IMG/VR virus record: IMGVR_UViG_3300007511_000003
Coordinates: 1-64,000 of that record
DNA: 64,000 bases
DNA from: a virus
Reading direction: 5' to 3' (one strand)
Shown here: positions 26,729 to 38,951 of the stretch, piece after piece
Layout of the letters: the number at the start of each line of letters is the position of its first letter
Numbering within the stretch: position 1 is the stretch's first letter
The notes under the pieces: generated by a model
Databases searched by the model: none
Seen by the model: the letters and a program-made list of their open reading frames with translations, nothing else
Told to the model about the DNA's origin: nothing
Made by a program: the position numbers and the translations under genes

Positions 26729-27409
26729 ATGCCACCAGTAAAAGGATGGGCCCAGAAGTACAGGCCCCAAAAGTTAAGCCAAGTCGCAGGTCAAAAGTCT
26801 ATTGTTACCACGTTTCGGGGTAACATTGAAAAGGGTGAGATTCCCAGCGCCTACCTTCTGACAGGTCCAAGTGGATGTGGTAAAACCACCATCGGTCGGT
26901 TGATCGCCAAATACCTGAACTGTACAGAGATGACAGGGTGTGGTAAATGTGATTCCTGCGTCGCCTTACAGGAAGGCCGCCATCCTGATATCGAAGAGTT
27001 CAACATGGCAGACAGCCGGAAGATCGAGGACGTTCGTAACTTAATCGCCCGCAGTAGATTTATGTCCACCCATCGCCTCCGTGTCTTTATCCTTGACGAA
27101 TGTTTCCCTCCAGACGCGGAGGTAGAGGTGGCCCCTGATCAGTGGGCCACCATCGAGGATATTTGTCAAAATCCTGATAGATACCCAGAGGTGTTATCCT
27201 ATGATACAAAGGTAGGTAGGATAGAGGCCCAACCTGTAATTAGCAGGACACCAAAGGAAGCCAAGCCCGATCAAATGGTACGTGTCGATCTTGAGGATGG
27301 ATCCCATCAAGACTGCACGGATACACATAAGTGGTGGTCTGTCACGCGTGGACGTATGGTAGAAGCCCAAGAGCTTTTAGAGGGGGAGGAACTTTTGGTT
27401 CGCGATTAG
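26729..27409 (+). CDS. dnaX: clamp-loader DnaX N-extein (124 aa) + N-intein (102 aa)
   Basis: KYRP, GPSGCGKTT, zinc cysteines, FILDE, then intein block A CFPPDAEV (from 27101) and block B TDTH; stop at 27409. Confidence 0.92.
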   Translation: MPPVKGWAQKYRPQKLSQVAGQKSIVTTFRGNIEKGEIPSAYLLTGPSGCGKTTIGRLIAKYLNCTEMTGCGKCDSCVALQEGRHPDIEEFNMADSRKIEDVRNLIARSRFMSTHRLRVFILDECFPPDAEVEVAPDQWATIEDICQNPDRYPEVLSYDTKVGRIEAQPVISRTPKEAKPDQMVRVDLEDGSHQDCTDTHKWWSVTRGRMVEAQELLEGEELLVRD

Positions 27410-27610
27410 ACTCCCGCTGTAAGTAAGGCCTTGTTTAAAATCGGTTTCCCAAATGTATACCACATTGTAACCTGCCAAGACTAGCCGTAATAACCTGTCC
27501 ATAGTTTTGCGGTATAGTGTTTTGGCAGTTACTTTGCGGTTAAATGGGTGGCACTTATGGTCAGGCTTGAATTTGAAAGGGGACCCGTGGTAATGATTCT
27601 CCGATGTAAC
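27377..27610 (-). pseudogene. start-less remnant of a Vsr-like homing endonuclease
   Basis: Minus frame reads ...HYHGSPFKFKPDHKCHPFNRKVTAKTLYRKTMDRLLRLVLAGYNVVYIWETDF...; no start codon before the YHG motif. Confidence 0.75.
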
Positions 27611-27635
27611 TTATCTAAATTAGTGAGAGGAATTT

Positions 27636-28553
27636 ATGAAAACTGTTAAAGTCAAAAAAGTCACGCGGTTGGGTAATCCGTGTCAACGCGTATATGATAT
27701 CGGTGTCGCTAAGAACCATAATTTTTTCATTCGACCAAAAGGCTCCACAAATAGCGTCCTGGTATCAAATTGCCACCAGTTAACGCCTCAGGCAGAGCAA
27801 GCCCTCTTGAAACCGCTGGAGGATCCTCCAAGTCACGTCCTATGGATTCTTGGCACCACAAACCCAGAGAAGTTGGCGGCTGCCATCAAGGGGCGTTGTC
27901 ACCATTTACCTGTGAAACCTTTAGGGCACCAGTCCATTATTCGACGCCTCCAACAGATTGCCAAACGAGAACGTGTTACTGGCCTCGAGGAACCTCACTT
28001 TAAGGCCATGGCGAATCTGTCAGGTGGTCAGATGCGTGACGCCATTGGTATCTTGGAAAATACCAGTTCCTTCATTGCAGGGCTCGGCACAGATGTTGAA
28101 CCTGAAGCTCTGTCCAAGATTATCGAAGACCAAGCCATCCAAACGGTTGACAGTGTTTTGGATAACATTGCAAGCGCCATCTTGGTAGGTCTGTACACGA
28201 ACAGTACCCGCATAGTGTGCAGAGAGATAGCCAAGACTACGGAGTTCGTGCCCCTCATGCAAAAATTAATGGACCTCAACCAATACATGGTGGACAGGGC
28301 CACGCTCCATTTTGATAGCAGGGGTCAACACCCAGCGGTGTTTGCCAGTGTATCCCGGAAGAACCTGCACAGGGCGATGTTAAAGCGGGAGTTCGACATC
28401 AAGAGGAACCTCGGTCTATTACTACGTGTCCATAATTTAATATTGGATGCTCGGGCTGAGATGATGACCTTTGTAACACCTGAAAGGTCAATGCTGGTTG
28501 CTCGGCTTGGGCGTATGTCAGGTATCCACCGACAACGTTCAAGGAGTAAGTAA
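27636..28553 (+). CDS. dnaX: C-intein (45 aa) + DnaX C-extein (260 aa)
   Basis: GAGAGG RBS; VYDIGV..NHNF block F, VSN|CHQL splice junction at 27770/27771, then ALLK.LE.PP, TT, GRC and G.MRDA clamp-loader motifs. Confidence 0.92.
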   Translation: MKTVKVKKVTRLGNPCQRVYDIGVAKNHNFFIRPKGSTNSVLVSNCHQLTPQAEQALLKPLEDPPSHVLWILGTTNPEKLAAAIKGRCHHLPVKPLGHQSIIRRLQQIAKRERVTGLEEPHFKAMANLSGGQMRDAIGILENTSSFIAGLGTDVEPEALSKIIEDQAIQTVDSVLDNIASAILVGLYTNSTRIVCREIAKTTEFVPLMQKLMDLNQYMVDRATLHFDSRGQHPAVFASVSRKNLHRAMLKREFDIKRNLGLLLRVHNLILDARAEMMTFVTPERSMLVARLGRMSGIHRQRSRSK

Positions 28554-36552: not shown

Positions 36553-37078
36553 CACCTTCACGATTACACGAAAAATTGAAATTGATGCGGGTCATCGTGT
36601 CCAAACACATGGGTCCAAGTGCCGTAACATTCACGGTCATCGTTATACCGTCGAAGCCGTGTGTAAAGGGTTCCTTTACTTGGAAGGGGAACAAACGGAC
36701 ATGGTGGTGGATTTTGGGTTCTTGAAGACCTGCATGATGGATATTATTGATGTAGGGTGTGATCATGGTTTTATTCTGTCCATCCAAGATCAGCAGCTTT
36801 GTCCGGTATTCATCCATGACTTTGGCCGACACGTCTCTGCCATACAGAAAGCGTGTGATGAGAAGGGGTATTGGAATTCGCAAGAAAGTGACGTTGAGAC
36901 TCTCCAAGGTACCAAGATTTATGTGGTACAGGGCATTCCAACCGCAGAGGTCTTGGCACAACACTGGTACCAACGTCTCAAAGAAGAGGTTCAAAAGAAA
37001 TTTGGAAAGGATATCCTACACCAAGTGCGGGTGTATGAAACACCTAACAGTTGTGCAGTATATCCCGGACACGTTTAG
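36545..37078 (+). CDS. queD: 6-carboxytetrahydropterin synthase QueD
   Basis: DAGHR, KCRNIHGHRY, MVVDFG, DHG, PTAE.LA, VYETP motifs; GGAGG RBS. Confidence 0.88.
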   Translation: MGNTFTITRKIEIDAGHRVQTHGSKCRNIHGHRYTVEAVCKGFLYLEGEQTDMVVDFGFLKTCMMDIIDVGCDHGFILSIQDQQLCPVFIHDFGRHVSAIQKACDEKGYWNSQESDVETLQGTKIYVVQGIPTAEVLAQHWYQRLKEEVQKKFGKDILHQVRVYETPNSCAVYPGHV

Positions 37079-38243
37079 GTTCCATGTGGTACCAGTTATG
37101 TGGTAACGGGAGTCGGCTACCAGCAGGGTCCATCACAAGGAGTTTAAATCGGAATCCAGCTTTTAAGCAGGCTTTCGCTTTGGCTTGAGTCATTTCCAAT
37201 CTGGACCTTCTACCACAGAAGGTCCATAAGGATTTGACTTCCACTAATATGTTACGTATAGGAATCCAAAGGTCTGGATAGTATTTCCTATTACGTCCAC
37301 CCAAATGGTAGGGAACCACAGGTAGATTATCATTGGCGCTCGTTTTTATATTTTCGGCAGGTATTTCTGTATTGGCCAAAATCCAAAGGATGGCTTGTGG
37401 TTCATACCCTTGGACTTGCACAAAGCGGTCTCCGAGTTTAAAATCCTTAGGTTGGAAAGCCTTTTGTCGTGCACATACCGGGCACCCTGAACCACGAATA
37501 ACCATGCTTGGTTCAGCTTTCCATGTGTGGTTTTTAACACATTGGTGTCGGATGGCTGAGTTCGCCCCAACATATTTTTCGAGAACTTTAATCGTATTAC
37601 CATGCATGTGTCTTACTTCCCGTAGGTATTGTTGGGGGTGTTTTCTTTTCCGTGATTGGGCACATGAGGGGCAACCACATCCAGAAGTTACTGATTGAGT
37701 TGATGCCGCCCATCGGTGATGACATAGATGGCATTTGTACCGAGATTTTTGTCGAGAACCCGGATTATACTCTAACACTTGGATAGTTGATCCATGGATC
37801 CTTCTTAGCTTTTTCTCGTAGGTAGTTAATGGTACCTTGGTTCCACGATGACGGTCCGCACAAATGGGACAATTGGTAGCTCTCAGTGCTCGGTAGGGAG
37901 AAGTCTCCCAATCGGTACTACACCTAAGGCATCGGTGTAATATAAAATGATTGGCTCCTCGGTATTGTTCCAAGCAAATTAAGTAACCTTGGTGCTTAGC
38001 TTTTAACTGTTCCAAGTAGTCCTCGTGGGTCCATGTTCGATTTCGTGTGTTGCAAGCAGGACAACCAGCACCTCTTAAAATAACGCCTGGTTTGGTGTAC
38101 CATTTATGGTTACACTCAAGGCATTGGTGTAGGATTTTAATTCTTCCTTTGACGTAGGATCCGAGGACTTTAATTTTATTTCCATGTGGTAGCTGTTTGA
38201 TCGCCTTTTTGTAGGTTTCTGTAGTATACTTAACACCGCGCAT
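37044..38243 (-). mobile_element. free-standing putative homing endonuclease (zinc-ribbon repeats + PD-(D/E)xK domain)
   Basis: Four repeats ending in CPxC, C-terminal YYPD...VEVKS; opposite strand, AT-richer, overlaps the queD 3' end. Confidence 0.7.
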
Positions 38244-38318
38244 CCTATTTCTCCCGTGTATAAAAAGGTTATCTATTAAATTAGTATGTAAATAGACTTC
38301 AATAGGGAGGTAAACAAA

Positions 38319-38951
38319 ATGAACGACATTGATTGGGAACAAGAACTAGGGGCTGGAGGCGCCCTCTGGATCCATGACGGCAATGGGCCTCACGCCCTGC
38401 TTACATCTGGCAACCACAGTGATGGCTTCTTCAACGCCAGCCAGGTAATCAAACACCCGACCTTGGTTTTGGATGTTTGTCTCCACTGGAAGGACCTTAT
38501 GGCCTCCCATGACTTTCATTGGGTAATCGGGTCTGCCATGGGAGTAGTAACGTTAGCCCACCAAATGGCTTTAATCCTGGGAGGGTCTATTGGTGGAGAC
38601 GTGTATACAGGCTTTACCGAACCCATGAGGGATGATGACGGCGAGAAGCAAATGGTCCTTAAGAGGTTTACCTTGGAACCGGGCCAACAAGTGTTGGTAG
38701 TCGAGGATGTATTAACCACCGGTGACACCACACGGAAGACCATCCAGGCTATCAAGGTACAAGGAGCCAAGGTAACGATGGTAGCAGTTATACTCAACCG
38801 AAGTGGTCACCGACATATTAATGGCCTACCTATCGTGTCCTTACTTGATAAACAACTCCAGATTTGGCCTCCCCATATGTGCCCACTCTGTGCGGACGGT
38901 TCTGAAGCTGTCCGCCCAAAAGAAAACTGGGACCTGTTAACAGCGTCATGA
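38319..38951 (+). CDS. pyrE: orotate phosphoribosyltransferase
   Basis: LLTSG.HS..F, VLVVEDVLTTG PRPP motif, CPLC...KP-type C-terminus. Confidence 0.8.
   Translation: MNDIDWEQELGAGGALWIHDGNGPHALLTSGNHSDGFFNASQVIKHPTLVLDVCLHWKDLMASHDFHWVIGSAMGVVTLAHQMALILGGSIGGDVYTGFTEPMRDDDGEKQMVLKRFTLEPGQQVLVVEDVLTTGDTTRKTIQAIKVQGAKVTMVAVILNRSGHRHINGLPIVSLLDKQLQIWPPHMCPLCADGSEAVRPKENWDLLTAS

Follow-up and report, generated by a model that had tools for sequence, protein, structure and literature searches.

How does a phage obtain a working clamp loader when the gene for it is broken in two within the ATPase domain? The question is raised by a locus in IMGVR_UViG_3300007511_000003, a 168.9-kb IMG/VR virus record of which the first 64 kb (64,000 nucleotides, hereafter the window) are considered here. 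The gene is that of a DnaX-like clamp loader; its first part ends, directly after the Walker B motif, in a sequence resembling the N-terminal half of an intein (IntN), and its second part begins, 226 bp further on, with a sequence resembling the C-terminal half (IntC). The most probable answer, which we would put at roughly 85%, is that the locus carries a naturally split class-1 mini-intein, placed immediately after the Walker B Asp-Glu of the clamp loader.

The positions of the features are collected in Table 1. The N-extein ends RVFILDE and the codon for Cys1 follows at 27101, opening an IntN that begins CFPPD and finishes in an acidic tail (EAQELLEGEELLVRD). Beyond a spacer of 226 bp (27410-27635), and in a different reading frame, the second open reading frame (ORF) starts with an IntC in which block F is VYDIGVAKNHNFF and the terminus VLVSN, after which come the Cys+1 codon at 27771 and then HQLTPQAEQALLK. 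The two intein halves are oppositely charged, IntN having a net charge of -12 and a pI of 4.4, and IntC a net charge of +8 and a pI of 10.7. An earlier note on this DNA, made from its letters alone, had described an N-half consisting of DnaX up to the Walker B ILDE, a 102-residue IntN and a stop, and a C-half with a GAGAGG ribosome-binding site, a separate start 226 bp on, a 45-residue basic IntC and a +1 Cys; coordinates and motifs are as it gave them, and the computed charges agree with the acidic/basic pairing that it had pointed out. It had also proposed a rebuilt gamma-length product, and here too the sequence agrees, with exteins that would add up to 124 + 260 = 384 residues (43.0 kDa) and an expected junction ILDE-CHQL that aligns gap-free with an intein-free orthologue. 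As to the host protein, the dnaX_nterm model (TIGR02397) is matched by the N-half over positions 4-126 (123 bits) and by the C-half over positions 123-288 (92 bits), each score and their sum falling below the equivalog cut-off of 250 bits, and PF13177 is matched by the N-extein at 60 bits and the C-extein at 44 bits. Walker A, the zinc module, Walker B, sensor 1 and an SRC-type arginine finger are all present in the exteins, and the protein is best called a phage DnaX-like, gamma-length clamp-loader ATPase.

Table 1. Features of the split clamp-loader locus (positions are those of the window)
Feature	Position	Strand	Description
N-half ORF	26729-27409	+	226 aa; DnaX residues 1-124, 102-aa IntN, TAG stop
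N-extein	26729..27100	+	DnaX-like ATPase residues 1-124: Walker A GPSGCGKT, Cys4 zinc module, Walker B ILDE
IntN	27101..27409	+	102 aa; Cys1, block B T73xxH76, charge -12; TAG at 27407-27409
Endonuclease-gene remnant	27377..27598	-	About 67-73 codons of decayed 3' end; final 33 nt overlap the end of IntN
27-bp stretch deleted in some contigs	27506..27532	.	Absent from L010 and L013; direct repeat TTTGCGGT on the flanks
Shine-Dalgarno-like GAGAGG	27625..27630	+	5 nt upstream of the C-half ATG; read from the sequence
C-half ORF	27636-28553	+	45-aa IntC, then Cys+1 and the rest of DnaX
IntC	27636..27770	+	45 aa; block F D21/H28, block G VLVS44-N45, charge +8
C-extein	27771..28553	+	Cys+1 and DnaX residues 126-384: sensor 1 TTN, GRC arginine-finger motif, lid, collar; TAA stop

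Simpler means of joining the two ORFs do not account for the locus. The spacer holds several stops in each of the three forward frames, the ORFs themselves lie in different frames, and the genetic code is standard, with long ORFs ending at TGA 43 times, at TAA 40 times and at TAG 15 times; read-through, a frameshift and a different genetic code are ruled out on these grounds. A regulatory RNA or a terminator in the spacer was likewise considered and rejected, there being no terminator-like site, no promoter-like site better than chance and no significant RNA structure in it (fold z = -0.76). Thirteen contigs carry the same two ORFs; they come from different samples and from assemblies at ENA, JGI and Logan, and the doubt that might attach to the TAG at the end of the N-half is therefore answered as far as assemblies allow.

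The resemblance of the interrupting sequence to inteins extends from profiles to residues and fold. IntC scores 24.5-28.6 bits with TIGR01443 (intein_Cterm; cut-off 15.6) and is matched, too, by the start of PRK07373, a model of the C-terminal DnaE fragment; its best PDB sequence match is the IntC of Npu DnaE. Sixteen sequences were aligned, namely the contiguous (cis) inteins of the public proteins P0081 and P0082, five split IntN and nine split IntC, the window included; the window IntN aligns with the other N-side sequences along its length. Cys1 follows the N-extein in 7/7 of the aligned N-side sequences, block B is T/S-x-x-H followed by KWWSV in the family and T73-D-T-H76 in the window, and the window has all of D21, H28 and N45 in IntC together with Cys+1. 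Across the family Cys1, the T/S-x-x-H of block B, the Asp and His of block F, the terminal Asn and Cys+1 are conserved, though the halves are only 31-50% identical. When run against solved inteins, the profile of this alignment (A2) matches those of Npu DnaE (2KEQ/4KL5; E 8e-10), the Spl DnaX mini-intein (7CFV; 7e-8), NrdJ-1 (3e-7) and gp41-1 (5e-6). The cis relative P0082:127-271, which is 54% identical to the window IntN and 60% to the window IntC, is predicted with a pLDDT of 95.2 to form an all-beta HINT domain, and in Foldseek this model is closest to inteins, above all to that of Npu DnaE (TM 0.76-0.81). The split point is canonical, with 102 + 45 residues here against 145 in the contiguous relatives.

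Public proteins hold every state of the insertion site: intein-free, interrupted by a contiguous mini-intein, and split. The intein-free P0003 (385 aa) reads ILDE/FHQV, where the slash marks the site, and has no insert; it is 74% identical to the N-extein and 58% to the C-extein, its junction is collinear and gap-free, and its gene stands in the same order as in the window (Metallophos nuclease, DnaJ-like protein, clamp loader, 86-aa ORF, SbcC-like protein and UvrD helicase). P0083, also intein-free and gap-free across the site, reads LLDE/CHQLT, so that Cys at +1 is also a native residue. The cis alleles P0081 (516 aa) and P0082 (517 aa) have a contiguous 145-aa mini-intein at the same site, and the split state is represented by the N-halves P0002, P0004, P0098 and P0099 and by C-halves that start with IntC (P0075-P0080, P0084, P0085 and P0092). 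For the window, the dnaX_nterm positions of the two halves abut, and a joint alignment joins the exteins without a gap. The earlier note had read the locus as a split intein, and that reading is upheld by the profile matches to solved inteins, the HINT fold of the cis relative, the retained catalytic residues, the collinear exteins and the occurrence of intein-free, cis and split alleles at one site.

Related inteins are found at nearby points of clamp loaders (P0115, P0119, P0120, P0123, P0125, P0127, P0128, P0130, P0131, P0150, P0155, P0180 and P0218), some of them three residues past Walker B (DE.H./C, mostly DE[LIF]HQ/C) and others further downstream, after ...A[AEQ]Q/C or ...AQE/C, with both split and contiguous forms present. 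Their occurrence at neighbouring points suggests that the intein family has moved between sites.

By its similarity to intact genes in relatives, the spacer can be recognised as what is left of an antisense homing-endonuclease gene, namely its decayed 3' end. An ORF of 459-465 aa on the opposite strand stands between the halves at L004 (a 163-kb JGI contig) and L005, and in the contigs of P0002, the closest split relative, an antisense ORF of 380 aa does so; in all of these the 3' end of the antisense ORF overlaps the end of IntN by 33-36 nt, the figure being 33 nt in L004 and 36 nt in L005. The proteins of the intact antisense relatives have treble-clef zinc-ribbon repeats (DUF4379) and PHROG endonuclease-family matches. 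The minus strand of the spacer, from 27598 to 27377, aligns with the last ~67 residues of two of them, P0097 and P0096 (H-G-x-P ... GYNV..W.WE..F..G...SG), with E-values of 5e-11 and 2e-9 (tblastn and blastp, in a tiny search space), and the remnant overlaps IntN by 33 nt, the geometry seen in L004 and L005. An intact endonuclease gene between the halves is not found in the window, where only about 70 codons are left: upstream stops close the frame, and neither the N-terminal zinc-ribbon array nor the first nuclease motifs remain. In a population alignment (A1), two of the six other contigs (L010 and L013) are without 27 bp inside the remnant, and the remaining spacer is identical in all seven. 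The endonuclease gene has thus been lost and is still eroding while the flanking intein halves stay intact, which is the pattern expected under selection for splicing.

The type of nuclease is less readily named. P0097:330-459 has no PDB sequence match, its nuclease part no Pfam match and its AlphaFold2 model a pLDDT of 52, and the Atlas matches of the nuclease part (DUF723, DUF559 and DUF2726) are leads only. The motifs FEFLG..WHGDP and GYNV.W.WE resemble those of Vsr, and the nuclease may have a Vsr-type core (PDB 1CW0). The idea that the remnant is a copy of one of the two other endonucleases of this genome was rejected, as it has no similarity to the gene at 37044-38342 of the window or to that at 87448-88593 of the genome. 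The former (minus strand, 432 aa) is intact and free-standing and runs antisense to the operon around it; its product has four or five zinc-ribbon repeats and matches PHROG 681 and 559 (endonuclease).

Split clamp-loader inteins are common and widespread in viral metagenomes. Among the best 150 matches of an exhaustive HMMER search of 1.84 billion representatives (50% identity), 22 (212-680 aa) end in IntN and are split N-halves, 19 match both intein halves and are nearly all contiguous, five have the IntN match alone, and the other 104 are clamp loaders free of any intein. When IMG/VR was scanned with the C-half alignment, 32 loci came up; a single-protein scan of the same database with the N-half found nothing. 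When these loci are tallied with L004, L005 and the window, 26 are split (25 besides the window) and five contiguous; 18 of the split loci have a co-directional ORF between the halves, two have an antisense ORF and six, including the window, a gap of <300 bp. Split loci from IMG/VR whose intervening gene has been lost are L019, L021, L025, L032 and L041, with gaps of -29 to 278 bp; at L032 the two half ORFs overlap.

No split DnaX was found in annotated cultured phages, in which the only IntN-like matches sit in other genes. The clamp loaders of Pseudomonas phage Peetri and Vibrio phage GR11A are whole, and the suggestion of dislocated dnaX halves in GR11A was rejected on that account. An unannotated fractured gene with the same antisense layout does occur in this phage (vB_VcorM_GR11A; L055, MT366761.1 4110-9358): GR11A_00006 (779 aa, 'hypothetical') has a C-terminal IntN-like domain, GR11A_00005 (271 aa) is antisense to it and overlaps its 3' end, and GR11A_00004 is a 'helicase ATP-binding domain' protein.

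A route to a whole clamp loader can be proposed from these features. As the spacer has no terminator and no significant RNA structure, co-transcription with separate translation is the simplest reading, and we infer that the two adjacent genes are most likely co-transcribed. Translation would give a 25.6-kDa precursor (DnaX 1-124 with the acidic IntN) and a 34.2-kDa precursor (the basic IntC with DnaX 125-384), whose intein halves would associate, probably steered by their opposite charges, and fold as one HINT domain. Splicing would then begin with an N-S acyl shift at Cys1 and proceed by trans-thioesterification to Cys+1 and by cyclisation of the IntC residue Asn45; a final S-N shift would complete the 43-kDa clamp loader of 384 residues, joined as ILDE-CHQL. 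The conserved residues fit what this standard class-1 pathway would require, and to judge by them the pair very probably trans-splices in vivo; its S-N ending, its best matches and the pattern of its charges point to behaviour like that of the DnaE split inteins. Because Walker A, the zinc module and Walker B are on the N-half, and sensor 1, the arginine-finger motif, the lid and the collar on the C-half, neither precursor alone can be a working ATPase, and only the spliced product would unite Walker A and B with sensor 1, the arginine finger and sensor 2. As to origin, a contiguous mini-intein at this site was probably broken by an antisense free-standing homing-endonuclease gene, still intact in relatives, of which all but ~220 bp of the 3' end has been deleted in this phage.

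Several points weigh against a functional split intein. The profile search by which the earlier note proposed to identify the two halves is clear for IntC and borderline for IntN, which scores 22.9-24.4 bits with TIGR01445 (intein_Nterm), just under the cut-off of 24.5. The penultimate residue of IntC is Ser and not His, although the DnaE split inteins likewise end in SN. The HINT fold was predicted for the cis relative P0082 and not for the two halves in the window, and splicing activity is deduced from conserved residues only. The 13 contigs are near-identical here, probably represent one phage population and are no evolutionary replicates, yet they speak against an assembly error. Moreover, the record is estimated by CheckV to be ~65% complete, so that a second, whole clamp-loader gene elsewhere in the phage is possible.

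This last point bears on whether the locus is simply a dead gene, in which insertion of the endonuclease gene broke the clamp loader into pseudogene fragments and the phage uses the loader of its host or a gene in the unsequenced 35% of its genome. In its favour, no gene for a sliding clamp (beta-clamp, PF00712) was found in the 168.9 kb of this ~65% complete record, and the clamp served by the split loader may lie in the missing third of the genome; the adjoining endonuclease gene, for its part, has clearly decayed. However, decay affects the spacer and not its flanks: both ORFs are full length, with all catalytic and ATPase motifs intact, and dozens of divergent phages (31-50% identity) keep the two-gene state along with the splicing residues. 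Nor is there another PF13177 gene in the 169 kb of the partial record, and a dead gene is very unlikely. The residues that tell against pseudogenes also tell against association without splicing, according to which the intein halves would be a high-affinity dimerisation module that is retained in a two-chain ATPase. Charges of -12 and +8 would bind tightly with or without chemistry, and the penultimate His is missing, but a module of this kind gives no reason for the family-wide conservation of Cys1, TxxH, the block F Asp and His, the terminal Asn and Cys+1, and a 147-aa HINT domain would sit right after the Walker B glutamate, in the ATP site. Furthermore, the nearest solved relatives that end in SN, the DnaE split inteins, are reported in papers cited in PMC11766414 to trans-splice with high efficiency, and we regard a purely structural role as highly improbable. 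It is scarcely credible, finally, that the true gene has a contiguous intein and that stop, spacer and restart come from a mis-assembly or a frameshift. The source is metagenome-derived, but 13 contigs, obtained from several samples by three assembly pipelines, repeat the layout. The spacer is interrupted by stops in each of the three frames and corresponds by homology to the 3' end of the endonuclease gene present at the same place in relatives, and the cis relatives link the two halves by only a few residues.

A naturally split intein that breaks a phage gene has precedents in the fractured genes described by Dassa, London, Stoddard, Schueler-Furman, and Pietrokovski (2009; PMC2677866), who name as hosts gp41, IMPDH, DnaE, NrdA, NrdJ, ligase and terminase; the text of that study makes no mention of 'clamp', 'DnaX' or 'gamma'. 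As in those loci, the break falls at a conserved motif of a phage gene for DNA metabolism, adjacent ORFs end and begin with intein halves, and a free-standing homing-endonuclease gene is, or once was, present between them. One of the published cases, gp41-7, is a split intein whose endonuclease gene has been lost and represents step III of the gene-breaking model (Dassa et al., 2009). Here too the endonuclease gene is gone and the halves are still neighbours, but unlike in gp41-7 a recognisable remnant survives. Because the spacer is a decayed homing-endonuclease gene, the locus shows the endonuclease-loss stage (step III) of the pathway that Dassa et al. (2009) proposed. It departs from the earlier examples in having a DnaX-like clamp loader as the host, and whereas their three ORFs lie on one strand, the endonuclease gene is antisense in L004, L005 and the P0002 contigs.

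Among solved inteins, the best matches in both sequence and structure are the naturally split inteins of cyanobacterial DnaE, or PolIII alpha (Npu and Ssp; PDB 2KEQ, 4KL5, 4QFQ and 1ZD7). These have in common with the window the canonical split point, Cys1, Cys+1, the VYDIGV..HNF block F, the penultimate S-N and the acidic IntN with basic IntC, and their IntN ends at the same alignment position. They differ in host protein and insertion site, identity is only 23-25%, and the IntC of 45 aa here compares with 36-37 residues in the solved Npu IntC chains; the dnaE halves, moreover, are at separate loci of a cell, whereas those of the window are 226 bp apart in a phage. The cyanobacterial DnaX inteins (Ssp DnaX; Spl DnaX, 7CFV), by contrast, are found in the same host family and at the same point directly after Walker B, and also have Cys1 and Cys+1 (table in PMC11766414), but they are contiguous and Ssp DnaX has been split only artificially. 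In a survey by Novikova et al. (2016; PMC4760082), PolIII-gamma inteins turned up in Cyanobacteria alone and at one point, 'a', right after Walker B, with no mention of a split form, which agrees with the statement of the earlier note that the cyanobacterial intein at this motif is contiguous. The family profile scores 35.8 bits against the DnaX intein and 42.2 bits against the DnaE intein, and since the window intein is no closer to DnaX than to DnaE inteins, a recent transfer from cyanobacterial DnaX is not indicated. A full-text search of the literature, with much of the subscription literature outside its coverage, yielded no description of a natural split DnaX or clamp-loader intein. The locus is a genuine natural split intein by its sequence, and with no clamp loader among the published fractured hosts and none split in annotated cultured phages, the clamp loader is a new host gene of a known fractured-gene arrangement.

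The wider setting is that of a large phage. Nearly all genes of the record are on one strand, among them those for virion proteins, an SbcCD-like pair, a ribonucleotide reductase, a helicase, a UvsX-like recombinase and an SSB; this gene content and the 168.9-kb length of the record identify the element as an uncultivated jumbo phage. The nearest clamp loaders of annotated phages, at 25-31% identity, are those of Vibrio, Xanthomonas, Erwinia, Burkholderia and Pseudomonas phages of 200-265 kb, and a nucleotide search against annotated phages gave no match.

The record holds two further inteins. One fractures the gene for a family-A DNA polymerase (G000:C1 85462-89944, minus strand; loci L002, L048 and L050) in the same way as the clamp-loader gene. 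Its N-half of 464 aa comprises a 3'-5' exonuclease domain and a 98-aa IntN (...AGEF/CIHPES), its C-half of 690 aa a 46-aa IntC ending VLVHN/C and a DNA_pol_A domain, and an intact antisense ORF of 381 aa (87448-88593, plus strand) lies between the halves and overlaps both. The polymerase and DnaX inteins are 33% identical in IntN and 43% in IntC. The other is contiguous, of ~490 aa with LAGLIDADG-type motifs, and lies in a 1090-aa frame at G000:C1 66713-69982 on the minus strand (...EGFL/CLAEGS ... VVHN/SGD), the extein of which has no Pfam match.

If two related split inteins work side by side during infection, one may ask whether they are naturally orthogonal. It is conceivable, if unlikely, that the clamp-loader and polymerase inteins are kept as a naturally orthogonal set and that trans-splicing gates replisome assembly after infection; if so, they would provide a post-translational checkpoint or protection from host interference, and would not be merely the scar of a selfish element. 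On the practical side, the canonical split, Cys1 and Cys+1, the 102/45-aa division, the strong charge complementarity, the dozens of natural variants and the second split intein in the same genome make it reasonable to look to the pair for new split inteins, which may be mutually orthogonal, although the gain would be incremental as many split-intein tools already exist.

For phage biology, the clamp loader would join the replication proteins that phages assemble by protein trans-splicing. The locus also completes an unusually clear evolutionary series at a single site, running through intein-free, contiguous, split with an intact antisense endonuclease gene, and split with a decaying one. This series lends support to the endonuclease-loss step of the gene-breaking model (Dassa et al., 2009), here with the endonuclease gene in an antisense orientation that was not seen in that study.

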